Source: Minutocellus sp. GHC0000111
Taxonomy: Eukaryota
Direction: 5' to 3'
Length of the DNA stretch: 64,000 bases
Assembly (NCBI GenBank): GCA_977018835.1
Contig: OZ361256.1
Coordinates: forward strand, 6,324,001-6,388,000
In this document: positions 11,574 through 42,534 of the stretch, in pieces
Layout: every line of letters starts with the position of its first letter
How positions within the stretch are numbered: the stretch's first letter is position 1
Translations under genes and position numbers: made by a program
Notes under the pieces: generated by a model
What the model saw: only the letters and a program-made list of their open reading frames with translations
Told to the model about the DNA's origin: nothing
Database searches by the model: none

Positions 11574-13280
11574 TCAGATACCATTTTCCAAGGTCTTCAG
11601 AGCAGCTCTCAATGCTTCGTCAAGATCATCCACTAGATCTCGGCAGCTTTCAATGCCAACAGATAGACGGATGAGTGTATCATCGATGCCCAATTTTGCT
11701 CGCTGCTCATCCGGAACGGAGGCGTGTGTCATAAGCGATGGGCATTCGGCAAGGCTCTCCACTGCACCGAGAGATTCAGCAAGAGCAAACACCTTGAGAT
11801 TCTCCAGGATCGCAGCCGACTGAGCCTTCCCCCCAACGCAATAAAATGTCACAATGGCACCTCCACTACCATTCTGTTGCTTCATAGCCAGCTCATGCTG
11901 AGGATGAGAGGAAAGTCCCGGATATAGAACACGGGTTACTCCCTCAGGCTTTTCGAGAAACATTGCAATTGCCTTTGCATTTGCCGCTGCAGCTTCTAAG
12001 CGCACATGCAGCGTTTTGAGGCCACGGTGAGCAAGGAAGCAATCGAATGGCGAAGGGACAGCTCCGATGCCATTCTGAATGAATCTAAGCTTGGTAAATA
12101 CATCATCGGAGTCCGTACAAACGACGCCCATTACGCTGGGAGCACAACACATGCAAGGGAAAGTAGAAATAAAAAGAGAAAGCCAGTTTTAAATGTGTTC
12201 CATGTGTTAGATCGCATCGATTGTTGCAAAGCAAACTCTCATGTAGCAAATCAACATGCAAGTAATCTACCGGTAATGTAAACCATCGAATCTTACCAGT
12301 CGCTATGCCCAGATATGTATTTCGCTTGGAGAAAATAGCACGTAAGAAATAAAAAGAGAATACAATGTTGAGTGATATAACATCGCATTGATAGATGATA
12401 TGATGATCAATACTAGAACTCTTACGAGAAAGGTCAACATGCGCACACAATCAACGAATCAAATCTCACTAACTGAATGGACTACGGCATCAGCGCCCAT
12501 TTCAAGTGGATTCTGAGTATATGGACTACAAAAAGTGTTGTCTACAACCAGCATGGCTTCATGTTTATGAGCAAGGCTGGCGGACGCGGCAATGTCGGAC
12601 ACTTTTAAAGTGGGATTGGTTGGCGTCTCCAGCCAGAGCAGCTTTGTTTTGCCCTCCATCAGCTTGGACTCGAGCAGTCCCAGATCAGAGAAGTCGACGA
12701 AATCAAAAGTCTGAAACATGTAAAGAAAAGGAAAGAATTTGGATCGATTGGATTTGATATCGACAAAATATACGGAATTGGTTGTGAGATTTTTATTGCC
12801 TACATGAATCACACTTCACATGCATCAACTCACAATGTTCATGCAGGGCGATACAATGCGGCGGAAGTATCGTTGGGTTCCACCGTAGACGTCGTCAATG
12901 ACAATCACATTGTCCGTAGGTCGGAGCAAGTGAAGTACTGCTGCGGTCGCGGCACTTCCAGAAGCATACGCCGCGCAATGCTTGGCGCCCTCTGCTTGTG
13001 CCATTGCTCGCTCAAAAGCTCTGGCATTCAATTAATGATGACGGAAGAAATTGAGTTGTTGGTGATGAGAATAGTCAAATTCGAATGCAATCATTGCATC
13101 ATTGAGACAACACAAAAGTAGACCAGAACTCGCTCACCCTCGAGTTGGATTGCCAGTTCTACTGTACTCGTAACCAAGGCCAAAGCTGTTGGGATCCGAG
13201 AGTCCCATCGGGACGCCGGGACTGCGCTGGACGAAGGTTGTTGCCAGGGATATAGGCTCAACGACGGCACCGGTCGGATT
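11574..13280 (-). pseudogene. CTH: Cystathionine gamma-lyase, lacking its native N-terminus
   Basis: TGAVVEPISLATTF, YSRTGNPTR, ASGSAA, DDVYGGT, LETPTNPTL, VDNTF, HSVTKYISGHSD (PLP lysine, on a micro-exon ~12297-12324), LAESLGAVESL, IRLSVGIE; four introns. Confidence 0.85.
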
Positions 13281-13356
13281 TGATGTGGCGATGCTGCTGC
13301 TGGCAGTGGTGTCATCACTACTTCCGGTCGTATCTTTTGTCGTCGTCTTTGTGTGA
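12380..13356. repeat. 977-bp segment duplicated in inverted orientation at 24469-25445
   Basis: Identical ORF translations on opposite strands; coordinates sum to 37825. Confidence 0.95.
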
Positions 13357-13409
13357 ATGAACGAGGTGCCGCGCCCGTGAACACAACATAACTTAAAAGC
13401 ACCGCAGGA

Positions 13410-15134
13410 CTAATTATCCATGGTTGGATCAGCAGGAGGAGGAGCGATAATTTTCCCATCTATCCGAACCATGCCATTTTCAGTCGGCCTGAAATCCTTT
13501 CGCACCCCAACATGAATGCCTTTACCGTTTCCAAGAAAATCATTGTTGCCTTTTGCAACGATTACCTTCTTTGCAATTCTATGAGCCTGGATGTATGCCG
13601 ATGCGATCTTCCAGTTTTCCAGCCCCATCCAAACTTCCTCCGCTGCATCCCAAGTCTGATCCTCTGTCAAAACCTTCAGCCCCTCCCGATCGCGGCTCAA
13701 CATTGTATGCCGCTTTGACATGCAAGGGAAAACAGACAGATCAAGAACATTCATATGGGGCATTTGCGGGGACTGAGGTTCCCAACGCCATCCCTTGTCC
13801 CGACAGCATCCTTCCACATATTCCACAAATTCAGTCTCGGCATGGGGCCCAGCATTGTCGCCCTGGAAAATAGGGACATAGCCTTCAAACTTTCCGCCAG
13901 GTCCGACCAAAGCCTCAACATCCGGAAATATCTTGTTCTCAAACAAAGCTTTCAGTGGGAACTTGGGATTGTCAAGGGTGCCATGGCTGCATCCAGTCAC
14001 CGCGCAATCCACAAGGTATAGATCGTCTTTCTTCCGAACCACCGGGCCGCAATATTTGATTCTACCATCTGCCTGCCGCACCGCCTCCCTTACCATCTGC
14101 CTCGCAATTTTATGCGCCTGAGCCCGAAAAAGTCCAAGCTTGAACGCAATGCCGCCATTCTCAATGCTGTCAACAAAAGCCAAGGCAGTGACAGCCACCA
14201 CCATGCACTTGTTGATGTGATTTCGGTGATATGCCGAGAAGGACCGAGGATCAATACCCAATTCTGCAACTTGCTTGGCATACGATCGAAGAACCAAGCC
14301 CCCAAACCACTTCTCATCGAACATAACAGGGAGAAACTTGCCACCGCCGAGCCCCCAATTGTTTCGGAATTTCCGCGCAAATGCCAAATGTTTCTCCATC
14401 TGATGGGTAGTAAGGAGAGGGATGATCCTTTCGGCATAGTACCGGAACCCTTCCCGCGACATTATCCACCGCCGTATTGCCGAGTAGGAACACCAAAAGT
14501 TGACATCCACCTCCAGCTCCCGCCAAGATTCCCGAGGATTTCGTATCAGAGCATCAACAATAACATCTCGAATGTATGGCTGCATAGCCAGATGAGATCT
14601 CCTCTTCATCTCCCACATCGCCTTCTCAGATGCAGGTAGAGCACCATACGCCTTCATCCATCCCGAAAATCGTGCACCATGCTCTGCGCTGGACAGCACC
14701 GAATAGTCCACCTTTGCCTGCTCCCTGCACTTGGCAATTGCAAAGAGACATGGTGCAGTATACCGCCGGGTCGCCGTTGCAAGATCGTCAATGACAGAAC
14801 GGAAGGCGGCCGAATCAGATGAAACATCGGCACTCGTTGGGAAGCAGTATGCCGGTCCAAGTATGCCGATCGCGTCATCGAAATGCTCAGCTTCGACTTC
14901 CGCCCGAGACACAAATGGATTGAACACATGCTCACCGCTGTCTTGGCCATCATCATTGACCAGGAGAAAACTCTCAAGATTGACGGGCCCGAGGATTTTG
15001 AGAAGCACATGCTCCTCAATGTCGTCAGTCGACTCGTCTGCCGGGCGATAAGGGCCGAGAACATGCCCCTCGACATGGATGATGTCGTGGCAATAACTGA
15101 ATCGGTGTACGACAAGGCCGCGGAGATGTTCCAC
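13410..15134 (-). CDS. Tc1/mariner-type transposase (DEKWF class, DD38D spacing); true start uncertain
   Basis: MFDEKWF, FQGDNAGPH, PQMPHMNVLDLSVF; 38 residues between second and third Asp; HTH-like segment upstream; uninterrupted frame. Confidence 0.9.
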   Translation of the reverse strand: MEHLRGLVVHRFSYCHDIIHVEGHVLGPYRPADESTDDIEEHVLLKILGPVNLESFLLVNDDGQDSGEHVFNPFVSRAEVEAEHFDDAIGILGPAYCFPTSADVSSDSAAFRSVIDDLATATRRYTAPCLFAIAKCREQAKVDYSVLSSAEHGARFSGWMKAYGALPASEKAMWEMKRRSHLAMQPYIRDVIVDALIRNPRESWRELEVDVNFWCSYSAIRRWIMSREGFRYYAERIIPLLTTHQMEKHLAFARKFRNNWGLGGGKFLPVMFDEKWFGGLVLRSYAKQVAELGIDPRSFSAYHRNHINKCMVVAVTALAFVDSIENGGIAFKLGLFRAQAHKIARQMVREAVRQADGRIKYCGPVVRKKDDLYLVDCAVTGCSHGTLDNPKFPLKALFENKIFPDVEALVGPGGKFEGYVPIFQGDNAGPHAETEFVEYVEGCCRDKGWRWEPQSPQMPHMNVLDLSVFPCMSKRHTMLSRDREGLKVLTEDQTWDAAEEVWMGLENWKIASAYIQAHRIAKKVIVAKGNNDFLGNGKGIHVGVRKDFRPTENGMVRIDGKIIAPPPADPTMDN

Positions 15135-15332
15135 TCCTCAGTTACCTTCATCTACAAGTTCAACGGCGTGAAGCGGGAGCTAAAGAAGCTCAAGCTCATC
15201 CCGGATTGGCTGTGGTGCGAGATCCGGGACGAATGCATCGTACTGCCGATCCGAGGCGAGTATCATGCCATCATTCAAGATGAAGACGAGATGGAGGCCG
15301 AACCGTCGCGTCGCACGAACGCGTCCATTTGA
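14883..15332 (+). CDS. Antisense accessory ORF (149 aa) inside mariner A copy 1
   Basis: Globular-like composition, strong C/G third-position bias, followed by an AT-rich UTR-like tract before the TIR. Confidence 0.5.
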   Translation: MLSFDFRPRHKWIEHMLTAVLAIIIDQEKTLKIDGPEDFEKHMLLNVVSRLVCRAIRAENMPLDMDDVVAITESVYDKAAEMFHSSVTFIYKFNGVKRELKKLKLIPDWLWCEIRDECIVLPIRGEYHAIIQDEDEMEAEPSRRTNASI

Positions 15333-15572
15333 TTAGAGCCGCTGAAATCTAAAGTCTTATCCGAATTATTGTTTCACATGAAGATAAATCAAAATTAGAG
15401 TAAAATTAGCCATTTTCTTAAATATTTCAGCATGACTATTCTTCGAGGCGCTTTTCAATCCCCTCGAAAGCAGTCAAAAACCGGGCGCTCGATTTCTCGC
15501 GAATCTGACCTCGTACACGTAACAGCGTGGAGGCCGGCCAAACTGCTGCTGCCATAATAACCCATCACCACC

Positions 15573-18704: not shown

Positions 18705-19562
18705 TCATGAACCATAACTTGACCTATCGTAGGACAGGCCGTAATCCATGAAAAGCTCAGTTCCGGCTGGAATATCAACACTTGCATAGAAGGTGACTGT
18801 TCGAGAATCAAGGTCTTCTCGACTAAAAACGTTGCATCCAGGCCCTCCAATTGGCGGCTCATTGATTCTTGCTAGTAATGTGGGTGTAGCCAACCCACTC
18901 AATAAGTTTTCATGGATCCACACTGACCCTGGAACAGCACTAGATCCACCGTAGCATAGCTCTCCGATGTTCCCCAAGGCATCGGTAGGATCAATATATG
19001 ATGCATTGTCGGTAAACCTCCAGGCATAGCTACCACATTGTGGGTATTGGCCATACTTATTCAAATAAGCGTTTGCCTCTCGGACGACGCCAGGATAGGT
19101 CCCCAAAGCTGTTCCCTCTGGTATTGATTGAGTTGTATACAATCCCAGACCAGCACCTGGTACCTGAGTCTGCCGAGCAACGAGGATGCCATCCTCCAGG
19201 GCCAAATTGCCCTGCGGACGGTCATACGCAGCCACGAGAGCAAAGTACGACAAGAAGGATGTTATGGTCGGTGTTACATACCGCGTGAGTGCTGAAGAGG
19301 TGGAGGAGGCAACCGATAACGATGAAGCTAACAATTCATTTGATGGTACCGCTGCAGTTGTTGTGGAAGAGCGGCACCGTCGGCTACTGTTAGTGTTGCT
19401 CGTTTCTGCTCTACTCGAAACTCTCGCCTGGTGGAGATGAAATGCGTCAACTCTGTCTGACTCTATCAAGAGCAAAATCACAACCAACAGAGGAAAGAGG
19501 CATCGATGGCGACGTGCAAACAACGGGAGCGGCACCATGCTGCCGTGAGCCATGGGCGCCAT
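18705..19562 (-). CDS. SET-domain protein with N-terminal targeting peptide
   Basis: GAGLGLY, ARINEP, DIPAGTELFMDYG; hydrophobic leader ending VDA-F. Confidence 0.8.
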   Translation of the reverse strand: MAPMAHGSMVPLPLFARRHRCLFPLLVVILLLIESDRVDAFHLHQARVSSRAETSNTNSSRRCRSSTTTAAVPSNELLASSLSVASSTSSALTRYVTPTITSFLSYFALVAAYDRPQGNLALEDGILVARQTQVPGAGLGLYTTQSIPEGTALGTYPGVVREANAYLNKYGQYPQCGSYAWRFTDNASYIDPTDALGNIGELCYGGSSAVPGSVWIHENLLSGLATPTLLARINEPPIGGPGCNVFSREDLDSRTVTFYASVDIPAGTELFMDYGLSYDRSSYGS

Positions 19563-19859
19563 GGGGCTAAAAATGAAAAAAAATGGGACCGAGCCGATAC
19601 GGCCGATTTCGGATACGTGGCGATGACGCTAAAAATGCCGCCGGGCCGGCCTACGCATACGAGGTCCGAGACAGCAATTTCGGGGACCCGGTTTTTTGGG
19701 TCTTTGGACTTTCCGACACGGCGGTTTGCGCGCACCTTGAAAAACACGCGGCAAAGCAAGCAAATCAAAACACATCCGTCAACAACCGACCTCCAAGCAA
19801 TTACCACAAATAGACTGGGCAACTTCTGCCGACTGGCGCTTCAAGAAGCTTCCATACTC

Positions 19860-20998
19860 ATGGATACTCCAAAGGGACACGTCTTCAGTCCACCGCGTCC
19901 ACCGAAACGCGCCGAGGCGACTGCATTCAGCCCCTCGCGCCATGAGAGAAGGAAACTTCCAACGAAACGCCGGAACATCCTCGGTATCGAGAGAACAAGG
20001 ACAACGATGACGAGGAGGACAACCAAGGGGTCCCACCGGCATCGTCAGACCTCACATCTCCTCGTGTGTTGAAATATCGACGCGAGTACAACGAAGAGGA
20101 TGGCTTCGCCGCCGAACAAGCCCAAGCAAGGAAGTACTTGCATCATGACATATTGCGTGCCGACTTTCGCGGTACCGCTACCGTTTCATCTCATTCTGAT
20201 GAAGATGATTCATTCTCAGAGATGAGCATAGCAACCGCCGACGCAAAGCCAAGCGGCGAGAGGAGAAAGCCCGTGAGCTCATTCGACCTTCCCTCCGCCA
20301 CGCCCATGGTAACAAGTCCAATGTCAGTTCATACTCAGTATGCTCTTACCCCAAGCCGCTCATGCCCGTCGTTCAGCAACCTTCAATTGTCATCCCCTAC
20401 CATCTTGGAGCCCTTGCCTCCAACCGAACCAACCGAACGACAGATTGAACGAGAGGTTGAGGAACATCGGAGGCTTGCGTGCTTTTTGACGTACGGAGAA
20501 GCACCACTACCACAAGATATAAAGAACTACAAGTCACCCACATGTAGTCAGAGGCCCGAACCAAGAAGAAAAGAGAAAGGGGTCTACCTCCCCTTCAAAC
20601 AAGTTCCTGGTTGGGGTAGCGAGGTCGCGGTCACCACAGTGCTAGGCATGATCGAAGTCGATCGCCAAGTAAGAGAGGGTCGTGGTGCCTACCCGAAAGG
20701 GTGGAGAAGCAGAGAACTCGGATTGTATGATAACAAGACAATAGAATTCTCTATTGCATTATCTACTGACAAGATTGCATTAGATGCATATAAGTTGGGA
20801 TATGAGGATGGGAGTAAACAACCAACTGCTCACCCTGCCCTCACTGACAATAAACTTGCCGATGCATATGGTGTGAAGCGCGGAAAGATTCGTCAGTCCC
20901 TCCACGCTGTGTGGCTTTCTAATGATCATAAGAAGGCCAAGGAGGCAAAAAAGAATACCGGTAGAAATAGAAGAACAAAGAAGCCCACCGTGACATAA
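19860..20998 (+). CDS. Mariner B accessory ORF, convergent with the transposase; possible C-terminal HTH; frameshift near 19990
   Basis: MDTPKGHVF... joined by one frameshift to ORF 20066-20998; LTDNKLADAYGVKRGKIRQSL is HTH-like; lies inside the TIR. Confidence 0.6.
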
Positions 20999-21093
20999 AC
21001 AAACCAATGCTGCTGCATCTTACATGTAGATCTATAAATAATTTGTAGACGTGTAACATTTATTTAATACATGTGTAAAGACATTAATACTAT

Positions 21094-22671
21094 CTATTTA
21101 TTAGAAGGATGACGAGCTGAGGGCTCCATCCCCTTGGCCGTTTCGTTGAAGTCGATCCTAATTCCAGTGTGCAAGTTTTCGTCACCCAACCTTCCAACAA
21201 ACTCATTGCTACCACCGGCCTTAATCACCAGGCCCATTATCCTCCAGTACTGAATGAAGGCCGAAGCAATTTTGCAGTTAGGCATGCTATCGTAAACGTC
21301 CTCGGCAGTGTCCCAGATCTGGTCGGTGGAAATGACGGAGGTGCCTACCATTTTTCGTGCCCATTCCGAGTGCCGCCGGCTCATCGCGGGGAACACGCTC
21401 AAGTCAAGGACGTTGGCGTGAGGCATCTGCGGTGCCTGTGGCTGCCACGTCCAGCCTTGCTCAGCACAGAAGTTAGTAACAAATTGCGTGAAGGTTCCGT
21501 CCTCGTGAGGCCCGGCCTGGTCGCCCTGGATAATAACATGGCAATCTTCGTATTGCTTGCCCGGACCGACAAGGTTGAGAATCGCTGGGAAAATAGTCTC
21601 CTTGAATACGAGGAGCAAAGAGCATTTCGGATCCTTTTTGGTGCCTTCGTTCGATCCAGTAACGCAACAATCAACAAGAAACGACTCTCCTTTCCGGCGA
21701 AGAGGTTCCTTTGGTGTCCCATCGGGGTTGGTATTTGGGTACCGTATTGAACCATAAGGCTGTGATACTGCTTCGTACTGAGCTCGCTCCGCTATTTTAG
21801 GAGCTTGAGCTCGTACCAGTGGCAGTTTTACAACCTCGCACCCACTCTCAAGAGAACCGTCAAAGACAGCGGCAACAAATGCAATGGCCATGACCTTGTT
21901 GATGTGGCTCCTGTGAAAGGCCGCGTAATCTCGCTTTTTCACGCCGATTTCCTCGCAAGCCTTCGCAAAAGCTCGGAGGACGAGACCCCAGAACCATTTC
22001 TCATCGTAGTGCACGAGGAGAACTCGCTTCTTTCCATTCGGTAAATTGCCGTCCGTTTGCGCCTGTCCTTGGCAATTGAATCGGTATTGAGGCCGAGTGG
22101 GATCGGGGTGATGGCCTTGAGAGGCACATTCTTCTTATGCATCATGCCACCAAAAGGCTTCTCATGCTGGACATCGCAAAGAGTACCTCCACCGACACCT
22201 CGACTGACCACAACAAATCCCTTGCCCTCAGGCCGATTCATGTTGGGACTGAAGTCGGCAGACACAAGGACACATTCCCCAGTGCTGATGGCAGGTCGCA
22301 TGTTATCTTCTTCCATTCTCATTGCTTTCTTGCGTTCGGGTGGTGCATCCGTCGGCATCCTGTGCGACCGAAGATGTTCACGCATTTGCACCCTCTGCTC
22401 CAAATGACGCATCGCCTCCTTCATTTTGTTCCTTTTCTTCTCGGCATCGGCCATGGCCTTTTCATCCTTCCTTCCGCTTTTCTCGTTTCAAGGTGTCCCT
22501 TAGCCCTTTCAAAGCCTCCTCTGCAGCTTTGTGTTGCGCTTCGGCCTCAACCAGCAGCACATCCAAGTTCTCCTCGGTCGATCCACCAGAGTTGGCGGTG
22601 CCGGTAGCAGAAACACCGACACTGGCAGGATTGCCAGATTCTTCACTGTTGCCGCTTCCATCCACCACCAT
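21094..22671 (-). pseudogene. Mariner B transposase, internally deleted and frameshifted (DD38D)
   Basis: VHYDEKWFWG, IQGDQAGPH, PQMPHANVLDLSVF; region expected before the catalytic domain is missing (junction ~22045); N-terminal pieces in other frames. Confidence 0.85.
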
Positions 22672-23207
22672 GGACTCTCGGCGATGCCCCCAGCTTCGAC
22701 ATTATCATCACCAGGACGAGCAGCGATGCCAGCATTGTCCTCGACCGTCGGCTCAGGGCTGGCATCGGCGTTGTTGGATGACGAATTGCGCCGAGCAACG
22801 CGGTCTGGCAGAAAATGTCAATGATCCTGCCTCATCCAATCCCGGCCGACGTCGAGGACGATCTGTCTTAAAGACAGATCTCGAGGTATTTGCGTGTCTT
22901 TCGACGTGGAAGCTGCGTTGCTCACATCCTCCCTTCGGCGTCCGGATTGTTCACTTCCGTCAATCACTTCTCAACACTTCACCCGGGGTGCCGTGGTGTA
23001 GAATTCATTGCACTTCAGCTTTTATGGCCAATGCATCCAGGCAAAGTAATACAGAAATTATCGGCGGTCCCCAACGAATTACTCTCCTCTGCGAAGCCAG
23101 ACCCATCCTCCTGACCACGCGTGCTCAAAAGGAAATCTCTCCTTCTCTCCATCATCACCCTTGCCGCAACCGCCACGTCCCCTTGCATTCACCGACTATC
23201 GAACTCA

Positions 23208-23461
23208 CCCTCATAATATTCCTCAGCCTGTGCCCCGCCGGCCACCATACTGAGCTTGCTCTTCAAATTCTGCGCGTACGGGTTGGCATCGTCAATCTGA
23301 GCCAAAAGGTTCGAGCAACTGTTGCCGCTGCTGGTGGTGGTGGTCTCCACCGTTCCGACCAATCCCACCGCCGAGCCCGAGGGGACGTTGAAGCCCTCCA
23401 CACCGCTCGACCAGGCCGCCGTGCCGACGAGGAGGGATGCGATGGCCGTCTTGAGGTTCAT
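23208..23461 (-). pseudogene. First exon of a probable plastid-targeted protein; rest of gene not found
   Basis: Signal peptide ending VEG-F plus Ser/Thr-rich transit-like peptide, then donor GTGAGT near 23207; no downstream exon recognised. Confidence 0.5.
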
Positions 23462-23849
23462 CGTCTTGCTCTTCGTTCTACTACTGAGATGATGATGGGA
23501 GATGGGAGCGCAAGTTGCAGTCCGGTGCCGAAACTCAAAATCGGCACGTCAGAGACGTACAAAGAAAAGACGTTCTTATGGAAGAGTGCAAAACAAAGCT
23601 GGCCGCGCTTTTCTGCCGTCCGCCAATCACGGAATCGGCGATACTGAGGAGACGGACACCACTAAACCTATAACGTGCTTGTTTTGCTGCGTTAAGCCCA
23701 GTAGAAAGGCGGCGATAGTTATTCCTCTTGCGCATTCCGAGTGGCGCCGATCGCTTGTGCTGCCTTTTGTGCTAGAGTAGACTTACGCCTGAATGACGAC
23801 ACAGTCGGAGAGGGGTCGTCCACTCCACCAAATCCTCCACTTCGCCAAC

Positions 23850-24507
23850 ATGACCATCGAAGAGCTCCCAGGAACACCAATCCCCCCCTTCACCGAGCGC
23901 CAAGGCAATGCTTCGAGACGTCTCTGATGCCGCCAAGACGACAATGACTCTTTGGAAGAACAGGCTGTACGGAGGACAAGGAGAAAAGAATGCGGCCGCA
24001 TCATCATATTCGTCAGAAGAAGAGATGCAAGAGAGCGAGAGCAACAGGGAAGACCAAAAAGAAGAGACAACCACCACGGAAGGGAGAGAAGAATGCAATT
24101 ACGTTCAGTACAGAATCATCACTAGGCGCATGTCTGCTGTCATCGAAATTGGCGAAGATGGTGGTTACAAATCTACAGTAGCCGCCGATTGTCAACTCAT
24201 CCCCGGATCTCCACTTCCAGTCGTCAAGCAAGATGAGGTTATTATCATGAAGCACATCGCATCGGACACTTCAGATATGACCATTGAAACCTCACAAGAG
24301 ACGTGTGCGGAATCGGTTGCCTCAATTACCCAAGAACTCGTCTCCATAGAGTCTAATGGAGAAGATGACGCTGCCTCACAGGACAAACTCACCCAGGAGT
24401 CCGCCGAGGAAGCTGCAGAAAGTTCAGAAGAGCAAGGCAACGAGTATGTGCCCGCAGCGTATTCAATGTCACACAAAGACGACGACAAAAGATACGACCG
24501 GAAGTAG
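23850..24507 (+). CDS. Acidic hypothetical protein fragment fused upstream of the cystathionine gamma-lyase fragment
   Basis: ATG 23850 with 1-bp shift in the C7 run to ORF 23908-24507; E/S/D-rich. Confidence 0.45.
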
Positions 24508-24544
24508 TGATGACACCACTGCCAGCAGCAGCATCGCCACATCA

Positions 24545-25445
24545 AATCCGACCGGTGCCGTCGTTGAGCCTATATCCCTGGCAACAACCTTCGTCCAGCG
24601 CAGTCCCGGCGTCCCGATGGGACTCTCGGATCCCAACAGCTTTGGCCTTGGTTACGAGTACAGTAGAACTGGCAATCCAACTCGAGGGTGAGCGAGTTCT
24701 GGTCTACTTTTGTGTTGTCTCAATGATGCAATGATTGCATTCGAATTTGACTATTCTCATCACCAACAACTCAATTTCTTCCGTCATCATTAATTGAATG
24801 CCAGAGCTTTTGAGCGAGCAATGGCACAAGCAGAGGGCGCCAAGCATTGCGCGGCGTATGCTTCTGGAAGTGCCGCGACCGCAGCAGTACTTCACTTGCT
24901 CCGACCTACGGACAATGTGATTGTCATTGACGACGTCTACGGTGGAACCCAACGATACTTCCGCCGCATTGTATCGCCCTGCATGAACATTGTGAGTTGA
25001 TGCATGTGAAGTGTGATTCATGTAGGCAATAAAAATCTCACAACCAATTCCGTATATTTTGTCGATATCAAATCCAATCGATCCAAATTCTTTCCTTTTC
25101 TTTACATGTTTCAGACTTTTGATTTCGTCGACTTCTCTGATCTGGGACTGCTCGAGTCCAAGCTGATGGAGGGCAAAACAAAGCTGCTCTGGCTGGAGAC
25201 GCCAACCAATCCCACTTTAAAAGTGTCCGACATTGCCGCGTCCGCCAGCCTTGCTCATAAACATGAAGCCATGCTGGTTGTAGACAACACTTTTTGTAGT
25301 CCATATACTCAGAATCCACTTGAAATGGGCGCTGATGCCGTAGTCCATTCAGTTAGTGAGATTTGATTCGTTGATTGTGTGCGCATGTTGACCTTTCTCG
25401 TAAGAGTTCTAGTATTGATCATCATATCATCTATCAATGCGATGT
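24545..25445 (+). pseudogene. CTH: Cystathionine gamma-lyase fragment (exons 1-3), broken in intron 3
   Basis: Inverted duplicate of 12380-13280, joined to mariner B arm at 25446-25455. Confidence 0.9.
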
Positions 25446-25454
25446 GTGATGGCA

Positions 25455-26638
25455 GAATATGTCCTTGTGTCTGCCGACTTCAGTCCCAACATGAATCGGC
25501 CTGAGGGTAAGGGATTTGTTATGGTCAGTCGAGGTGTCGGTGGAGGTGCTCTTTGCGATGTCCAGCATGAGAAGCCTTTTGGTGGCATGATGCATAAGAA
25601 GAATGTGCCTCTCAAGGCCATCACCCCGATCCCACTCGGCCTCAATGCCGATTCAATTGCCAAGGACAGGCGCAAACGGACGGCAATTTACCGAATGGAA
25701 AGAAGCGAGTTCTCCTCGTGCACTACGATGAGAAATGGTTCTGGGGTCTCGTCCTCCGAGCTTTTGCGAAGGCTTGCGAGGAAATCGGCGTGAAAAAGCG
25801 AGATTACGCGGCCTTTCACAGGAGCCACATCAACAAGGTCATGGCCATTGCATTTGTTGCCGCTGTCTTTGACGGTTCTCTTGAGAGTGGGTGCGAGGTT
25901 GTAAAACTGCCACTGGTACGAGCTCAAGCTCCTAAAATAGCGGAGCGAGCTCAGTACGAAGCAGTATCACAGCCTTATGGTTCAATACGGTACCCAAATA
26001 CCAACCCCGATGGGACACCAAAGGAACCTCTTCGCCGGAAAGGAGAGTCGTTTCTTGTTGATTGTTGCGTTACTGGATCGAACGAAGGCACCAAAAAGGA
26101 TCCGAAATGCTCTTTGCTCCTCGTATTCAAGGAGACTATTTTCCCAGCGATTCTCAACCTTGTCGGTCCGGGCAAGCAATACGAAGATTGCCATGTTATT
26201 ATCCAGGGCGACCAGGCCGGGCCTCACGAGGACGGAACCTTCACGCAATTTGTTACTAACTTCTGTGCTGAGCAAGGCTGGACGTGGCAGCCACAGGCAC
26301 CGCAGATGCCTCACGCCAACGTCCTTGACTTGAGCGTGTTCCCCGCGATGAGCCGGCGGCACTCGGAATGGGCACGAAAAATGGTAGGCACCTCCGTCAT
26401 TTCCACCGACCAGATCTGGGACACTGCCGAGGACGTTTACGATAGCATGCCTAACTGCAAAATTGCTTCGGCCTTCATTCAGTACTGGAGGATAATGGGC
26501 CTGGTGATTAAGGCCGGTGGTAGCAATGAGTTTGTTGGAAGGTTGGGTGACGAAAACTTGCACACTGGAATTAGGATCGACTTCAACGAAACGGCCAAGG
26601 GGATGGAGCCCTCAGCTCGTCATCCTTCTAATAAATAG
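25455..26638 (+). pseudogene. Mariner B transposase, copy 2 (5'-truncated, same internal deletion)
   Basis: Catalytic ORF 25718-26638 identical in translation to 21094-22014. Confidence 0.9.
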
Positions 26639-26733
26639 ATAGTATTAATGTCTTTACACATGTATTAAATAAATGTTACACGTCTACAAATTATTTATAG
26701 ATCTACATGTAAGATGCAGCAGCATTGGTTTGT

Positions 26734-27872
26734 TTATGTCACGGTGGGCTTCTTTGTTCTTCTATTTCTACCGGTATTCTTTTTTGCCTCCTTGGCCTTC
26801 TTATGATCATTAGAAAGCCACACAGCGTGGAGGGACTGACGAATCTTTCCGCGCTTCACACCATATGCATCGGCGAGTTTATTGTCAGTGAGGGCAGGGT
26901 GAGCAGTTGGTTGTTTACTCCCATCCTCATATCCCAACTTATATGCATCTAATGCAATCTTGTCAGTAGATAATGCAATAGAGAATTCTATTGTCTTGTT
27001 ATCATACAATCCGAGTTCTCTGCTTCTCCACCCTTTCGGGTAGGCACCACGACCCTCTCTTACTTGGCGATCGACTTCGATCATGCCTAGCACTGTGGTG
27101 ACCGCGACCTCGCTACCCCAACCAGGAACTTGTTTGAAGGGGAGGTAGACCCCTTTCTCTTTTCTTCTTGGTTCGGGCCTCTGACTACATGTGGGTGACT
27201 TGTAGTTCTTTATATCTTGTGGTAGTGGTGCTTCTCCGTACGTCAAAAAGCACGCAAGCCTCCGATGTTCCTCAACCTCTCGTTCAATCTGTCGTTCGGT
27301 TGGTTCGGTTGGAGGCAAGGGCTCCAAGATGGTAGGGGATGACAATTGAAGGTTGCTGAACGACGGGCATGAGCGGCTTGGGGTAAGAGCATACTGAGTA
27401 TGAACTGACATTGGACTTGTTACCATGGGCGTGGCGGAGGGAAGGTCGAATGAGCTCACGGGCTTTCTCCTCTCGCCGCTTGGCTTTGCGTCGGCGGTTG
27501 CTATGCTCATCTCTGAGAATGAATCATCTTCATCAGAATGAGATGAAACGGTAGCGGTACCGCGAAAGTCGGCACGCAATATGTCATGATGCAAGTACTT
27601 CCTTGCTTGGGCTTGTTCGGCGGCGAAGCCATCCTCTTCGTTGTACTCGCGTCGATATTTCAACACACGAGGAGATGTGAGGTCTGACGATGCCGGTGGG
27701 ACCCCTTGGTTGTCCTCCTCGTCATCGTTGTCCTTGTTCTCTCGATACCGAGGATGTTCCGGCGTTTCGTTGGAAGTTTCCTTCTCTCATGGCGCGAGGG
27801 GCTGAATGCAGTCGCCTCGGCGCGTTTCGGTGGACGCGGTGGACTGAAGATGTGTCCCTTTGGAGTATCCAT
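26734..27872 (-). CDS. Mariner B accessory ORF, copy 2
   Basis: Translation identical to 20066-20998; same frameshift. Confidence 0.6.
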
Positions 27873-28176
27873 GAGTATGGAAGCTTCTTGAAGCGCCAGT
27901 CGGCAGAAGTTGCCCAGTCTATTTGTGGTAATTGCTTGGAGGTCGGTTGTTGACGGATGTGTTTTGATTTGCTTGCTTTGCCGCGTGTTTTTCAAGGTGC
28001 GCGCAAACCGCCGTGTCGGAAAGTCCAAAGACCCAAAAAACCGGGTCCCCGAAATTGCTGTCCCGGACCTCGTACGCCTACTAGTACGCCTGCTGATGGC
28101 TTGCCCCGACCCACCGCCCACCGTCCATCGCGTACTGCGTCAACTACAAACAAGCGGGCCATTATTTGCTGTTACT

Positions 28177-29001
28177 ATGCGACCGCTGGAGTGTGGCATA
28201 GTCGACCAATCAGAGGATGATGGGTTCGAGAATTACGATTCGTCCCAGCGACAACCGTCGTCATCAGCGGGACATCGACAAAGATTTCCATCGGTGCGCG
28301 CTTGGATTCTCTTTGGTGCTGTTGTGGCCATTGGTGGTGTTGCAATCAGGAAAATGAAATCACAGGAGCTTGTCAATGATAAAGCGGAAGATGATGATTT
28401 GCAATCGCCTGGTAATTCGTTGGCTTCTTCGGGTGAAGGAAATGAAATCGCCGGCAACGGCAGTGCTCAGGACGAGGTCGTAGACGAGGACGAAGACGAG
28501 AACGACACGGATGCACCAACACCAGTGCCAGTGGCTTTACAGGACATCACAGCCACAGAAACTACCACATCAGGGCAAACTTGTGACAAACTATTTGATT
28601 GCATATCGGATCGTTTGGGCCAAAATGAGTCCATGTTTGCCGGGCAAGCTATTTGTAGCCGAGATGGTAGGTATGCGTTCGCAATGCAAATGGACAATAG
28701 TGTTTCATTGGTATGGAAAGATTGTACCACTGGGGAGACCAAAAAGTACTACAGGAAGGGAGAGGCGGATGATTTTTTTATAATGGATGAGCATGCAAAG
28801 TTTGCGGTTCATGGCGGTGAAGGGCAAATAAAATGGGAGAAAGATTGTCTGGTGTCCGTCAAGAGATATTCTCAATGTCTCTCAAAACCAATGTATGATT
28901 GTCCATATCTGCACCTTCACCGAGGCGGAGTTGTAGTGCTCAACTACATTGATGGATGGGATTGGATAAGTAGGAACATAAAGAAGATGTATGATTTTTG
29001 A
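28177..29001 (+). CDS. Single-pass membrane protein with possible bulb-type lectin-like domain
   Basis: TM segment AWILFGAVVAIGGVAI; AGQAICSRDGRYAFAMQMDNSVSLVW resembles B-lectin repeats. Confidence 0.6.
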   Translation: MRPLECGIVDQSEDDGFENYDSSQRQPSSSAGHRQRFPSVRAWILFGAVVAIGGVAIRKMKSQELVNDKAEDDDLQSPGNSLASSGEGNEIAGNGSAQDEVVDEDEDENDTDAPTPVPVALQDITATETTTSGQTCDKLFDCISDRLGQNESMFAGQAICSRDGRYAFAMQMDNSVSLVWKDCTTGETKKYYRKGEADDFFIMDEHAKFAVHGGEGQIKWEKDCLVSVKRYSQCLSKPMYDCPYLHLHRGGVVVLNYIDGWDWISRNIKKMYDF

Positions 29002-30348
29002 TTCTCTCTGCTTGCAATGAATGCAGGCAAAAGAATACAGTCCGGACTGTATTCTCCAGCGGCGATGGCCCGTCGTGAAACGACGGTGGCTCCTAAGCCA
29101 GATTTCAACTGCACTAAATCTAGCTACATGTAGTTCGCAGTTGGGCTCCGGCTCTGATCGGTGTAATTCACAGTCGGACGTGTCTTCTTCTGTATGGTAT
29201 GTAATACATGTACATGTAACTGCATGCATAACGTCCCACATCGAAGGACCAGGAAGAAGCGCTGGTTTCCGCCCAGTCATTTCTTTTTGACAACCTTTCA
29301 TTTCTTTTTGACAAACATGCGATTTTGCCACATCAGAGTACGGGCAAACAAGTGCGAGCGAGGTCATCGTCAAGCAACCGCCGCCTTTCCGCTTTTGCCC
29401 CATCGCCATTTCTCCTCCACCACGTGCTCAACCATGTCCTCTTCTACTGAACCAACCCCCATGACGAAGGTCCTGATCTTTGGCGGCAAGACAGGATGGA
29501 TCGGCGGTTTGATGGCCGATCTCGTTAACAAGCAAGAGGGTAAGTCCGAAGTGGCGCATCGCCGATGCTGAATGCGATAGATCGCTCGGGCATTGGTGCG
29601 CATGTATTGTGGAGGATTTTGTTTGTCCAGCGTTTGTTTCCCTGTACCCCGTAACTAGATTGATCATTTGACTTCAAGAATATCGCCTGGTCGAGTCGCC
29701 TGCAAAATGTTGTGCTCGGTCTCGCATGCTCCTTCTCTCTTGCTCATGCTCACATTTGGTCCGATGCAATTCACATACATGTATCCACAATAGGAATGGA
29801 ATGTTTCCTTGCGGAATCGAGGATTGAAAACAGGGCTGACGTAGAGGCTGAGCTCGAAAAGATCAAGCCAAGCCACGTCCTCATGTCGGCGGGCATTACT
29901 GGCCGCCCCAACATTGATTGGTGCGAGGATCACAAGCCAGAGACGATGTCATTGGCACTCTCAATGTCATTGGCACTCTCAACGTAGCGGACCTTTGTAG
30001 TATGAAGGGCATCCACTGCACCATCTACGCCACCGGCTGCATCTTTGAGTACGATGAGAAGCACCCCATGGGCTCCGGAATCGGCTTCACGGAGGAGGAT
30101 TTCCCAAACTTTGCCAAGTCGTTCTACAGCGAAACCAAGGGTTACATGGAGCAGATGCTCAAGTGCTATCCCAACTGCCTCACTCTGCGTGTTCGGATGC
30201 CCATCTCGGATGATCTCATCCACCGCAACTTTGTGACGAAGATCGTCAAGTACGAGCGGGTTGTGAACATTCCCAACTCCATGACTGTGTTGACGGAGAT
30301 GCTCCCCACATCACTCGCCATGGCACAGAAGGGCCTCACCGGTGTGTG

Positions 30349-33300
30349 CCTTTCGGTTTCAGAGGATTTGTAGAGGGTATACCAATAACCCCTAAAAAAG
30401 GTCATTCTTGCACCCATTTCTCATTTCCCACCACGTGTTTTGTTAGTCGACATTCTCTTCGGGAGGAACGCAAATACTCCTCAACTCGTGGATATCTACT
30501 GGACCTGCTCATTCAGTAGGTTGCCACCGACCAGTAGCATCCACTGAATTCGCAGGTCCAGTAGATTCTGGCAGGAACACACATGTTTTTTAGTCCCCCG
30601 CACACCCTCTCACCGCAACCCGCAAATTTTGTGACGATGACGACGACCAACCAGACCACGCCCAAAAAATACAAACGCAGCAGAACTTCGTTCTCAGGGA
30701 GCAAGAGAGGCAACACCAAGGCATCCAGGAAGGTGGCAAAGGCGGCAGCTGAGCCGAAAACACCATCGCCGAGCGCAAACACGTCGAAGAAGCGGCCACG
30801 GTGGTCAAATTCGCGCCCGCCAAACCGTCACCGTCGTCGGCGAAGAAGAGGACGGCCCCTCCTCCTATCCCCATGGCCTTTCTCCTTGCAGCAGATGTCA
30901 TTCGAAGGGCTGGTAAGGATCTGTGGTGGAGAGTAACCCCCGATTCCTGCGGCAAAGATGACATTTGTGTTGGTTCTCGGCAGAAATGGGAAGAAGAAGA
31001 CGTCCTCCCTGCTTTCATCGAGGCCGACTTGTTGCGTTCCAAGTCCGTCGGTGGAGGAAAGTATGAGCTACAGTGCAACGAGGAAAAATGGAAGGACATG
31101 CAGCAACATCTCAAGGAGCATTGTGGTTTGAAGTTGCACTTGTCGACGTGTCGGCCGAGAGGGAAGACAAGACGCAGGGAGCTTTGTGTTTGTGCTCACA
31201 GGTTGCGTAAAAAGAAGGAGGACAACCACCCGAAATTCTCTGGACCGGAGGGACAGAAGGTGCACGAGAAAAGAAATCCCGATGAAGTTCTGTTCTCTGG
31301 GCGCTCGACTGTCTTAGCTGCTAAGCTAGGTGAGAGGTTGTCAGCTCACAGAAAGGAGGCACAGTCAGCGCATTGCGAAGCAAGAGTGAAGTCACTAGTC
31401 GACGAGGCCAAGAAACTGGGTTGGATGCCAGCAAGTCTCCTCAGCATGCTGAAGGGAACTGGTGATACTTCCGCCACTGAAGCAGCTGCAGCCTCCCCCA
31501 ATGATGAAGGTTTAGGAGGAGCCGATGCTTCCGTTGTCTGTGCCACCTCCAGTGACATTGATGAACAGGTAAAGGTCGCTCTCGGCCTCGACTTTGTTGT
31601 TCGGATGGCCGGCCAACGATGACATGCTCCGTCCTCCTCGTCCCAATGCAACCGTCACCGAACCAACACCAATCAGAAAAGAAAAGCAGGCGAATGAAAG
31701 AATGCGGTTCAGCGCCGTGGCTCTCGCGGATTGGTGGGGGGATGCGGCGACCCAACTCGCACGTGTGAAGACAGGCAACAAATTGCAACTGCCGCGTGTC
31801 GGCAAGTTGCGTGCGATCACGGCCATGCCAAGTCAACCGGTGGTCCTCAGCTTTACAAGTTGAGAGACCAGCTCTACAAAAGCCTTGCTGATGGCATCAT
31901 TAATCCCATCGGCAGAAAGGAGGTTCGTGGAAGGAAGGCACACACGGACATGATCGAGGAGAAGGAGCCAGGATGTCTCCGCGAGCTGCATCGGCATGCC
32001 ACTCGGATGAAGGGTGCGATGGCAACCTTTAAGGAGCTAGCTGACTGTATGAGCGCAAAATCAGCTACTCCAGATGAAGATAGGCTGACAATTAGTCTCC
32101 ATCGTCTTCAGCTTTTTCGCTGGTGGAAAAAGCAAGGCGGCAAGGAGAAGTCGTCGATCGAGAAGCCGAGGCTCACCCCCGAACATTGCAGGAAGCGACT
32201 TGATTGGATCGAAAAGTGGGAGGACATTGCGACCGATCCCAACATTCCTGTAGCGCATCTTGATGAAAAGTGGTTTTACACTGCTACTCGGCGACGAAAG
32301 ATCAAGATGTTGCCACTTTCTGACGAAGAACTAAGCAGTCCGAACCTCGCGTCCATCCATGCTTCCGAGGCAAGCCCGAAAATTCGATCCAGAAGACACC
32401 CTGTCAAAGTTATGTGTCTTGGAGTTGTTGGCCGACCAATGAAGGATGAAACCAAAGACGTTGATTTCAATGGGCGCATCATGATCAAGAGAGTCGCCAG
32501 GGAGCAGAAGGTGGAAAAGCTTACGCGCAATCAGATTTCTCTCCAGATGCTAAGGTCAACGATGCGCTAAAAAATGACAAAGATTGGCGCGACATTTACG
32601 ACGAGAATGCTGACATGACCGCCGGCCATCTTTGCGACCACATTGCCGAAATCTACGGCCTTTCTGAGTTTGTTGCAGAGCGATTGGAACTTCAATACGA
32701 GGACTATAAATCCGACGGTCAGGCAAAAAGTCGCAAGCATGCCGCTGTTGGCTACAATCAAAAGATCTCGAGTCTCAAGCGACACACTCCTGATAGCAAT
32801 GGAGAGAAGGTGAAGGTTGAGATCGACGACCTTGAGCTCGGGGTGCGGTATCAACGGGGCGATAAGGTTACCAAGGACTGTAGCTGCGACTCCAAATGGA
32901 TGTTGGAGACTATGAATGAGGTCGGGAAGGCGATTCGAGACGCACATCATTGGGTGAAGTGGGATCCACAAAATGTTCAGGAGTCTGATGTTGTGTATCT
33001 CATGATGGACAATGCCGGCGGTCATGGGTCCAATGAAGCAGTTGAGAAGTACACCGAGGACCTCAAAAACAAACATAAGATTGAGATAATCCAGCAGGTT
33101 CCTCGGTCGCCCGAGACAAATGATCTCGGCATCTGGATGTCTTTGCAGTCGGCCGTCGAAAAGGAGCATCGCGGTCAGAAGAATGATGCGAATGCTCTTG
33201 ACAAGACTGTGATGAAAGTATGGGCCAATGTCGCATCAAAAGAGGCCTTTCTCAATGTATTTGGAAAACTTCCAGTGATATATAACAACATCAAGAGAAG

Positions 33301-33789
33301 TCGTGGCGGTAACAATCTTGTGGAGACCAGACGGGGAAAGGCTGGTCTCGCAAAAATTGCCGAGGAAGAAGCTGAAGAGGATGGTGAACCACTCTGGCCA
33401 ATTGATGCTCCCGGCGAAGATGTTGACATTGAGGACGACATAGATGAAGACGATGGAGTCATTGATTTGCTATAACTTATCATAGCATGTCCATTTCTAT
33501 TCATTACATTTTGATTTGGTGCTTCCAAAAATGTATTTTTTCCCGGGGTGAGGAATGCAAATGTCGAAAAAAATCATCACATAATGTACATTTATTGGTT
33601 CTGGTGCACAACATCTCTCGACTACATGTAGAAATTGGTGACCATAACTTGGTTCTTGCCCCGACTTCCATCTTGGCCGTCATTTATTCCTCGGAGTTAG
33701 AAAAAGTGAGCTTGGATTTTTGGTCTGGTGTGGTCGTGTTTCTAATACGTCATCATCACGTCACTTTCAAATCCTCTGAACTCGAAAGG
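30349..33789 (+). mobile_element. Mariner family C, full length (3.4 kb), both TIRs present
   Basis: 22-bp TIR CCTTTCG(GT/AG)TTCAGAGGATTTG; inserted in the TAC codon of GVYNF; flanks read TG and CA instead of TA. Confidence 0.92.
30637..33475 (+). pseudogene. Large mariner C transposase with several frameshifts
   Basis: AHLDEKWFY, KVMCLGVVGRP, MMDNAGGHG, QVPRSPETNDLGIWMSLQ; spread over five overlapping frames. Confidence 0.88.
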
Positions 33790-34660
33790 CACAACTTCAC
33801 CAACCCCGGGCGTTATCTCTCACAATGAGGTTTTGGACCTGTACAAGAAGTGCATCGACCCGACCTACACTTACACCAACTTCACGGTCGAGGAGCAAGC
33901 CAAGGCAATCAAGGCGGGCCGTTCCAACAATGAGCTGGACACCACCAAGCTCATGCGCGATGTGCCCGAGGGTGTTGTGATCAATGACATCAAGACCGCT
34001 TGCGATCTTTGCTTCCAGCGAATGAAGGAAAACCTGACGAAGCAGCACTACGGCGAGCTTCCCGATTCTCTCCCTGCTGCCGAGTTCAGGCGTTCTTAAG
34101 TGGCACATGCGCATGAAAGCTCGGCGGCGAAGGTTGGCACAGGAATGTACATCTCTTGGCCATAAACTTGACTTCATCGTCGACGCATCGGGTAGACCAT
34201 TGGTAGCAGATGCCGCCGGTGCCGGCACATGCATGCACCGTGCTCATCATCATCAGGCAGGATGAGACACATGTAGAGAAATGTCGTGAGGGAACGGATT
34301 GAGGTAGAAAGCAATAAGATGAACAATTTTGATTCCCTTTGGCGCAATTTAGTTGAGTGGTAGATTTCTAGCTAGATCTACGTTTCTTGATACGTTACAT
34401 GTAGTCTACCGGTAGCTAGCTTGATTTCTGCATTTTTCGAGAGTTTCGCTGGAGTTTCGAGGCTTTCGCTCGAGGGCGCGGGGCGGCGGACAGACATACT
34501 AGTAATTTCTAAATTACGCGAAGCGAAGATGAGAAAGCGCGCCTGCCGCAAACGGCGCACCTCCCCCAACCCAACGGCTCATCGACCGATACCGAACGCC
34601 GGCGAATGTATGTGAAAGCAGTCCGAGTTCTACGCAATTTCTACATAACAGAAGGGCACG

Positions 34661-36460: not shown

Positions 36461-36863
36461 GAATTGGCGTCTGCTCAATGCCACGCTATACAGTACCCTT
36501 GAGCCATGTCCCATGTGTCTGGCCGCGGCGCAGGCCTTTCGGTGCAAGTCGGTAGTGTATGGGGCACCAGATATGAGACTTGGAGCAGTGGAAACGCACA
36601 TTCGACTTCTGGATAACAAGCATCCATATCACGATGTTGAGGCCATTGGTGGAGTATTGGCGGAAGAGAGTGCGGCAATGCTGAGGGACTTCTTCCGCAG
36701 GAGGAGGACACAAGGGCGAAAGAAGGCTTCAGAATTTGGCAGGAGTACCTCAGGCGCAGTGCAGGTACAGAATGGCAACACAAAGAGGACAATAAGAAGT
36801 ACCGTACTTGGACGAATTTTTCCTTTATTCAAACGAATATTTTCCAATAGAAGGCGCGGGTAA
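36461..36863 (+). pseudogene. tadA: 3' half of tRNA adenosine deaminase (duplicate)
   Basis: NWRLLNATLYSTLEPCPMC...; lacks HAE motif. Confidence 0.9.
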
Positions 36864-36984
36864 GGGTAGATCAAATCGGCTAGCTAGCTGGAGCAATACG
36901 TGGCTAACTGACTATAATATAAACGCCCCTTTGTTTTTGTAGGAAGAAACATATCTTTAGGGTAAATTCCAACCATTTGTCTAG

Positions 36985-37983: not shown

Positions 37984-38353
37984 GTCGTATCCTGACAGTC
38001 TACAATTAGCAAAAGTAAATGAGTGTGATGATAGTAACGAGTTTGGTCCTCACCCCAAATGATATCCGTGAATGCAGAGCGGATGTGGGAAGTTCCACAG
38101 AAAAGCCAAAGATAAGCCTGCATGTACGACCAGGCAAGATGCGACAAATTGCGGTCATGTCCTAATTGATCGAGATTTTCCGAAGGGAAAGTGGTCGTAA
38201 AGGTGCTTTTGAGTAATTATTTTTTGCCTTGTTGTGTCACATTCAAATAAGTCGATCGAGTCGATTCGAGTCGAGTGAGTCCAAACACAGCTATGTCGAG
38301 TCGAGTGAGTCCGAGTGAGGAGTCTTGGCGTCTTGGTGGTTGCGCGACTTGTA

Positions 38354-38448
38354 CGAGGTCAGATTCGCGAGAAATCGAGCGCCCGGTTTTTGACTGCTTT
38401 CGAGGGGATTGAAAAGCGCCTCGAAGAATAGTCATGCTGAAATATTTA
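38354..38448 (+). mobile_element. Solo left end of mariner A
   Basis: TA|CGAGGTCAGATTCGCGAGAAATCGAGCG, broken after 95 bp. Confidence 0.9.
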
Positions 38449-41044: not shown

Positions 41045-41165
41045 GGGTAGATCAAATCGGCTAGCTAGCTGGAGCAATACGTGGCTAACTGACTATAATA
41101 TAAACGCCCCTTTGTTTTTGTAGGAAGAAACATATCTTTAGGGTAAATTCCAACCATTTGTCTAG

Positions 41166-42164: not shown

Positions 42165-42534
42165 GTCGTATCCTGACAGTCTACAATTAGCAAAAGTAAA
42201 TGAGTGTGATGATAGTAACGAGTTTGGTCCTCACCCCAAATGATATCCGTGAATGCAGAGCGGATGTGGGAAGTTCCACAGAAAAGCCAAAGATAAGCCT
42301 GCATGTACGACCAGGCAAGATGCGACAAATTGCGGTCATGTCCTAATTGATCGAGATTTTCCGAAGGGAAAGTGGTCGTAAAGGTGCTTTTGAGTAATTA
42401 TTTTTTGCCTTGTTGTGTCACATTCAAATAAGTCGATCGAGTCGATTCGAGTCGAGTGAGTCCAAACACAGCTATGTCGAGTCGAGTGAGTCCGAGTGAG
42501 GAGTCTTGGCGTCTTGGTGGTTGCGCGACTTGTA

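Follow-up and report, generated by a model that had tools for sequence, protein, structure and literature searches.

A 64,000-nt stretch of Minutocellus sp. GHC0000111 (GenBank assembly GCA_977018835.1, contig OZ361256.1, positions 6,324,001 to 6,388,000 of the forward strand; hereafter the window, all coordinates being positions within it) contains an 8,413-bp unit at 19660-28072. Both of its ends are outward-facing copies of one and the same 3′ end of a Tc1/mariner element, here called family A, with a TA dinucleotide outside each end (19658-59 and 28073-74), and a patchwork of host-gene pieces lies between the two arms. The explanation that we favour, with a probability of about 0.47, that is, a little under one half, is a low-copy insertion for which one donor element underwent same-end (3′+3′) transposition on sister chromatids, with template-switching repair afterwards. 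The original prediction had described the same outward terminal inverted repeat (TIR) with TA at both ends, which was borne out. It had also seen in the unit a Tn10-like composite, and this did not hold, given the truncated arms devoid of a helix-turn-helix (HTH), the private mutations that the arms share, the patchwork cargo with three junctions and the presence in it of a piece from beside the target. The unit resembles known composite-insertion and Pack-TIR structures, not a Tn10-like composite. The features involved, including open reading frames (ORFs), are the following:

12380-13356, minus strand: parental copy of cargo piece 2, in the host cystathionine gamma-lyase (CGL, PF01053) gene, whose remaining exons run to about 11560
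18705-19562, minus strand: left flanking gene, with a SET domain (PF00856, by Pfam)
19658-19659, no strand: left TA, presumed target-site duplication (TSD), from the sequence
19660-22799, minus strand: left arm, 3,140 bp, the 3′ TIR plus most of a non-autonomous Tc1/mariner derivative of family A
19860-20998, plus strand: ORF2 of family A, of 378 aa in other copies and convergent with the transposase, without Pfam family, broken here by a 2-bp duplication near 19949
21094-22053, minus strand: catalytic part of the transposase, DD38D, an open frame without HTH, 98% identical to protein P0001
22054-22799, minus strand: segment in place of the transposase N-terminus, a coiled-coil-like ORF, frameshifted here
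22800-23461, minus strand: cargo piece 1a, from a plastid ClpP/ClpR-family gene (P0100, 86%; PF00574), with its exon 1 (23461 to about 23208) and part of its intron 1
23462-24471, plus strand: cargo piece 1b, divergent promoter and 5′ part of a truncated acidic-protein gene (X1 contig, P0105)
24469-25445, plus strand: cargo piece 2, 977 bp, an inverted, 100% identical copy of 12380-13356, comprising the CGL 5′ untranslated region (UTR) and exons 1-3, into intron 3
25446-25454, plus strand: 9-nt filler between piece 2 and the right arm
25455-28072, plus strand: right arm, 2,618 bp, the same family-A 3′ end again
28073-28074, no strand: right TA, presumed TSD, from the sequence
28177-29001, plus strand: right flanking gene, without Pfam family

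The arms belong to an inverted repeat pair (19652-22277 and 25455-28080) that aligns without gaps at 99.6% identity. Inside the element, the core common to both (19660-22277 versus 28072-25455) spans 2,618 bp and contains eight differences, all of them transitions. In agreement with the original prediction, no inner copy of the 30-nt terminus was found in either arm, the best inner match being 17/30 versus 29/30 at the opposite end. The predicted arm length of 2.6 kb is right for the shared sequence, but the left arm is longer. Contigs of four runs (X1, X3, X10 and X17) were aligned to the window, the matches listed being 31 of 11,121. Because the contigs of X10 and X17 depart from the window at 22798/22799 (209 nt run beyond this point in X10), and because proteins of the P0002-type sub-family align as far as 22802 with family-A sequence in the left arm, this arm measures 3,140 bp and the cargo starts at 22800. 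The cargo had been placed at about 22880-25445; its nature as host fragments was recognized correctly, but not its start. The segment 22278-22799, considered as cargo, was rejected as such, since the X10 and X17 contigs and the P0002-type proteins continue there as family A. Both arms break off inside family A, at 22799 and 25455, each keeping the 3′ side of the transposase, and the left arm lacks at least 209-300 nt of the family-A 5′ end, presumably with the 5′ TIR.

Judging from sequence comparison, both arms likely derive from one donor copy, because they have private mutations in common that two independent insertions, among more than 100 copies, would not be expected to share. The transposase change D99Y occurs in both arms, while D was found in 44/44 other motif-bearing proteins (62 examined). 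The 2-bp duplication in ORF2 is also present in the right-arm counterpart of this frame (26734-27872) and is left out in the main contigs of all four runs; 22/39 ORF2 proteins read the unduplicated frame and none the duplicated one, a count in which gene calls would hide frameshifted copies. At 26650/21082 both arms read G, against A in the X3, X10 and X17 main contigs. The possibility of two independent donor copies was rejected on account of these private mutations. Five of the eight differences between the arms are crowded into some 190 bp next to the inner breakpoint of the right arm, a distribution to be expected from error-prone repair synthesis.

The cargo (22800-25454) is a chimera of host-gene pieces with three inner junctions (22799, 24469 and 25446-55). 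Its contents had been announced as a plastid-protein first exon, an acidic ORF and CGL exons, which was confirmed, the first exon being ClpR-like (PF00574) and the last ones CGL (PF01053). A single contiguous host segment was discarded as the origin of the cargo, considering the chimeric junction at 24469 and the identity of piece 2 as a copy of 12380-13356. The ClpR-like gene encodes a presequence that we take to be of the diatom plastid type. Its exon 2 was sought in the window and not found there, and the stretch 22800-22860 is provisionally counted with piece 1a. A perfect hairpin with 9-bp arms occurs at 22861-22881, 60 bp inside the left inner junction, where folding is not significant; the predicted folding of three junction stretches gave z = -0.28, -0.80 and -1.64, none of them significant. 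In the acidic-protein gene, 11 foreign residues contributed by the CGL 5′ UTR precede the end of the frame, while its relative P0105 runs about 180 residues further and the X1 contig continues for 299 nt unlike the window. Contigs that run on, together with the homologues, imply a parent copy of piece 1 at a locus outside the window. Piece 2 shows 0/977 differences to its parent, which lies 6.3 kb to the left of the unit and 11.1 kb from its copy. Pieces 1 and 2 share a 3-nt overlap at 24469-71. In the filler region, 25447-25455 equals 22286-22294, which in family A directly precedes (upstream) the breakpoint of the right arm and is matched on the other strand (45/20,000 random trials), and filler plus arm start (25450-25463) are identical to the start of piece 1 (22806-22819) in 13/14 positions (1/3,000 random). 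The divergent promoter of the cargo, as read from sequence, would send transcripts outward into both arms, and read-through would fold back over 2.6 kb.

Concerning the insertion site, when the unit is removed the SET gene and the gene at 28177 stand 199 bp apart in divergent orientation, very much as predicted (about 200 bp), and the two spacers roughly compared elsewhere in the window measure 173 and 320 bp. The TAC-initiated hexamer period at 19652-19657 carries on in phase into 28075-28092, which was also in line with the prediction. Such a phase was obtained by chance in 3,737/200,000 random pairs of TA sites (1.9%) and, with one real flank fixed, in 102/4,334 (2.4%) or 213/4,334 (4.9%), the statistic having been chosen post hoc. 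The TA at both ends is by itself weak evidence, as TA makes up 3.4% of dinucleotides. A 2,376-nt contig of X3 aligns from 28085, and the 81 letters ahead of this position are unaligned, which would fit an empty allele. An exact search of JGI metagenome contigs with a 24-nt word of the left flank gave 0 matches, and a search of these contigs for relatives of the 28177 gene gave 596 pattern stretches, 0 of them confirmed. A terminal 9-mer motif occurs six times, always at element ends, but 7/100 shuffles also reach six. It can be said that the unit likely sits at one insertion site, and the predicted insertion at a single TA is probable.

Contig depth, which according to the caveat of the tool is no copy number, was 1.17-1.71 times that of the flanks for cargo contigs of X1 and X3, compared to 1.34-1.49 times expected for one extra haploid copy, and was raised in both of the two runs with enough cover. 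That most of the cargo is at about single-extra-copy depth argues against the unit having spread, and the predicted ability to transport host DNA stays a conjecture. The stretch 22975-23052 of the ClpR intron, with a depth of 230-240 versus 100 in adjacent sequence of X3 (about 2.3-fold) and about 1.9-fold in X1, may have further copies elsewhere. Family A is about 100-fold amplified, the arm contig of X3 reaching about 114 times the flank depth.

The assignment of the arms to the Tc1/mariner superfamily relies on the DDD/E triad, the HTH in full-length members and the TA target. In the family-A transposase, 38 residues separate D2 from D3, and its closest named relatives are P0020 of Cylindrotheca closterium (46%) and P0048 of Bacillariaceae (44%). 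These relatives and the ClpR-like presequence point to a diatom as the likely host; the runs that cover the window best bear the labels sponge metagenome or coded organism A. The arm transposase covers residues 154-472 of P0001 (98% identity), whereas the HTH of P0001 (PF01498) occupies residues 78-142. The unit thus encodes no complete transposase; HTH-bearing family-A members exist as a possible source in trans. Out of 62 close family-A proteins, 20 have the replaced type of N-terminus and 16 the HTH type. The Atlas search with the replaced N-terminal ORF gave only matches of 0.80-0.81 (DUF3104), which were not used. ORF2 has no Pfam family and no usable Atlas match; its copies at 99-100% identity are numerous (clusters of 150 and 35), and its only non-self relative is P0114 (43%). 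When nine frames of the window were run against Pfam, the SET and CGL frames were matched and the other seven gave nothing below E 0.03. In other family-A copies, eight predicted proteins (P0110, P0111, P0113, P0115, P0141, P0154, P0165 and P0170) switch abruptly to foreign sequence, to the strand of the opposite ORF or to an internal duplication, which hints that internal rearrangement is common in family A, gene-call artefacts being possible.

In maize, one Ac end is found in inverted copies of 2.1-2.5 and 1.8-3.9 kb, flanked by a TSD, that arise by sister-chromatid transposition and produce small interfering RNAs (bioRxiv 10.1101/2020.01.07.897926), and composite insertions with flanking DNA and microhomology joins are described (PMC4270019). 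The unit is like the maize "Ac killers" p1-ww-id1/id4 and Mu killer in that these are inverted unequal copies of one end, of 2-4 kb, here 3,140 and 2,618 bp; they are TSD-flanked, and here a TA, probably a TSD, lies on both sides. It is also like the Ac composites in their inner ends joined by repair and in that composite insertions can carry DNA not belonging to transposable elements. As far as those accounts go, it differs in being Tc1/mariner, in having 3′ instead of 5′ ends, and in a patchwork cargo from at least two loci, one of them beside the target. Related processes are the solo-end bimolecular transposition reported for Sleeping Beauty and piggyBac (PMC3952818) and the alternative transposition of VANDAL21 (PMC12312487).

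Like Pack-TIRs and plant Pack-Mariner elements (PMC8903248), the unit has TIR ends and a probable TSD around copied host fragments, at low copy, and the CGL parent is kept (12380-13356). Single-copy Pack-TIRs show a cis bias, with 56.9% under 15 kb, and microhomology (PMC8277862); the corresponding features here are the 11.1-kb distance, the 3-nt overlap and the templated filler. Pack-TIRs have at their borders one 5′ and one 3′ end from the parent element, while here both ends are 3′ ends: the same end is present twice, stretched to 2.6-kb inverted arms, and most of the element is kept twice, unlike in the Pack-TIRs described. Drosophila mariner MITEs, which are miniature transposable elements with inverted repeats, also have long inverted repeats made from one mariner end, by an end replacement whose origin was called elusive (PMC4161770). 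As that source portrays them, these MITEs are short, amplified, 5′-for-3′ and free of host cargo, while this unit is of 8.4 kb, 3′-for-5′ and unamplified. The DDD triad, the HTH_Tnp_Tc3_2 domain in full-length members and the TA target are shared with diatom Tc1/mariner transposases, which are related to the PlantMar (DD39D) group (PMC7325037). Compared to PlantMar as outlined there, family A has 38 instead of 39 residues between D2 and D3, a convergent ORF2 and an amplified sub-family with a replaced HTH region. No title matching such a composite insertion in a diatom was found in a literature search of titles that lay mostly outside subscription journals; a search on templated inverted inserts after Tc1 excision gave no paper.

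The favoured explanation, same-end transposition from one donor, would proceed as follows. On sister chromatids, a transposase supplied in trans would bring together the two identical copies of a single donor's 3′ end and join them to one TA. The donor would be a 5′-truncated family-A copy, possibly already fused to the ClpR intron, in which case piece 1 would be donor flank. Re-replication or copying would abort, having covered 4.8 kb on one side but 2.6 kb on the opposite one, and the two inner broken ends would be joined by template-switching repair that copied in host DNA, error-prone synthesis adding the 9-nt filler and a 977-bp part of the CGL gene, which is near the target. Alternative-end transposition was an option of the original prediction, and this one is supported. 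The marks of repair are the overlap at 24469-71, the filler with two local templates and the arm differences clustered at the breakpoint. Since the CGL piece was copied from beside the insertion site, it was likely captured there during repair and not carried in. A precedent within the window for a one-ended element fused to host DNA is element B at 13380-15509, which lacks a 3′ end. For the unit to move again, two 3′ ends at a distance of 8.4 kb would have to serve as a substrate.

Several observations weigh against this explanation. Within the window, to which the inspection was confined with no genome-wide search, neither a donor site nor an excision footprint nor a linked large duplication or deletion was seen. 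The native locus of piece 1 is outside the window, so the term donor flank is our inference, and the support for the empty site is indirect. The maize model, taken as an analogy, pairs a 5′ with a 3′ end, not two 3′ ends. Furthermore, no contig spanning an inner junction is among the matches listed; at the CGL gene, X1 and X3 have contigs that continue unbroken past both cargo breakpoints. Finally, the same data are accounted for nearly as well by in-place gap filling with fold-back, which we consider possible, with odds clearly below even. According to this alternative, a normal family-A element was inserted at this TA and subsequently suffered a cut or break at its 5′ end; using the 3′ TIR of the resident copy, or that of the sister, as a new priming site, the right flank copied 2.6 kb inward, and template switches via the CGL gene and the ClpR locus, followed by rejoining, gave a single-copy Pack-TIR in which one end took the place of the other. 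The shared private mutations, the nearby capture, the microhomology and the filler are all explained in this manner. The cis bias and microhomology of Pack-TIRs (PMC8277862) and the replacement of one mariner end by the other in Drosophila (PMC4161770) are in agreement with it, and a second templated insertion with its source 2-4 kb away is present at 36461-38448. On the other hand, fold-back in place requires four template switches, in one or more events; it leaves without reason the second, apparently distant template and the raised depth at 22975-23052; and the Drosophila cases, as given in that source, put a 5′ part for a 3′ part, the reverse of this unit. On either account, same-end transposition or in-place fold-back, the unit was put together by repair and has not been amplified.

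As the genome has over 100 nearly identical elements, a chimera of the assembly or a wrong phasing of haplotypes might be suspected, but seems unlikely. It would agree with the lack of inner-junction contigs among the matches listed and with the X1 and X3 CGL contigs that pass both breakpoints; such links can be lost when a graph is simplified. At the inner junctions, unique sequence adjoins unique sequence with a 3-nt overlap or templated filler, and these are not collapses at long repeats, and the arms differ at eight sites yet have private sites in common. Moreover, cargo depth is raised in 2/2 runs with enough cover, the X3 contigs of the ClpR intron have depths of 100 for the window type versus 41.6 for the other allele, and X1 shows both letters at nearby window variants (6.77/12 at 33952).

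A Tn10/IS10 composite consists of two insertion sequence modules, each with an inner and an outer end, at least one of them with a complete transposase, and its cargo is the segment between the two insertions. Inverted modules around cargo and outer ends at a probable target duplication are indeed seen here. The reading tied to it has a host segment enclosed by two independent inverted family-A insertions, which would have been deprived of their inner ends and moved together. It can count on the outward TIRs and the TA at both ends, and a two-neighbour model has been proposed for plant Pack-TYPE elements (PMC8903248). It is nevertheless largely refuted, and very improbable, because both arms have private mutations in common, no inner TIR remnants exist (17/30 at best), the P0001 match begins only at residue 154, the cargo is not one natural segment (it has the chimeric junction at 24469 and one piece from beside the target) and there is no sign of amplification. 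Equally improbable is that the two TA ends come from separate sites, the unit marking a larger rearrangement that joined two insertion sites: TA is a weak TSD and the flank searches in JGI contigs were empty, but the hexamer phase across the junction (about 2-5% by chance), the 199-bp divergent spacer and the 81 non-matching letters by which the X3 contig extends to the left of 28085 stand against it.

Another observation concerns the mutations of the family. Changes from TpA to TpG or CpA are strongly enriched among copies of family A. Relative to the column majority, they can explain 88/216 residue changes in transposase copies (51/60) and 22/63 in ORF2 copies (35/35), while this class makes up 42/2,090 and 59/2,252, respectively, of the possible single-base missense changes; the counts are per sequence and not per event, were inferred from protein, and assign ambiguous changes to the TpA class. 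At the DNA level, the class comprises 5/8 of the arm differences and 8/21 of those between two copies of element B. Among the variants listed, it accounts for 5/5 element positions, 6/10 flanking element C and 3/15 in the ClpR intron (34/40 rows examined, 182 further rows outside the tally). Tandem duplications accompany these changes, as 9/9 left-out indels among those listed repeat adjacent bases (2-6 nt). TpA changes or duplications were noticed in copies of families A, B and C and in the gene flanking element C, at 26650, 29725, 31097, 31320, 32675, 33612 and 33906-34147, and Tyr-to-His/Cys are the dominant protein changes. The literature search described above, mostly outside subscription journals, gave no matching title on TpA-to-TpG hypermutation in diatoms. 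A general mutation bias may also be the source of the excess. It is doubtful, although conceivable, that a transposon-associated process of TpA-to-TpG/CpA change and 2-6-nt duplication acts on mariner copies and their flanks, as the reverse of fungal repeat-induced point mutation, erasing TA targets and tyrosines, and that the unit is both a product of the same error-prone repair and a "mariner killer" hairpin, acting in addition against the CGL and ClpR genes that it captured.

As for the other elements in the window, the element B copy at 13380-15509 has an open transposase frame of 474 codons, an extra 438-bp segment with an uncharacterized ORF and no 3′ end, and is fused 23 bp upstream of the CGL 5′ UTR; a second copy, at 42535-44426, has both ends and two 4-bp duplications. 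Element C, a third high-copy Tc1/mariner-like element at about 30346-33790, is flanked by TG and CA where one would look for TA, and the X1 and X3 contigs lack it (joint 30347-33791); the gene that it interrupts is presumably nucleotide-sugar reductase-like. The segment 36461-38448, inside another gene, is a 1,988-bp, 100% identical copy of 40642-42629 that holds a zinc-finger gene together with the 3′ part of a deaminase gene and 96 bp from the end of element B. In X1 and X3, the join without this segment occurs beside a break of the contigs at 36461.

The locus is very young, because piece 2 shows no difference to its parent over 977 bp, and therefore its junctions are readable. Most descriptions of composite insertions and killer-type inverted duplications concern maize Ac and Mutator, and with a mariner example from a microalga this route of gene-fragment shuffling and silencing triggers would be extended to stramenopiles. 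As a single unamplified rearrangement, the unit is of moderate importance, and the TpA-directed bias across the family may matter more.

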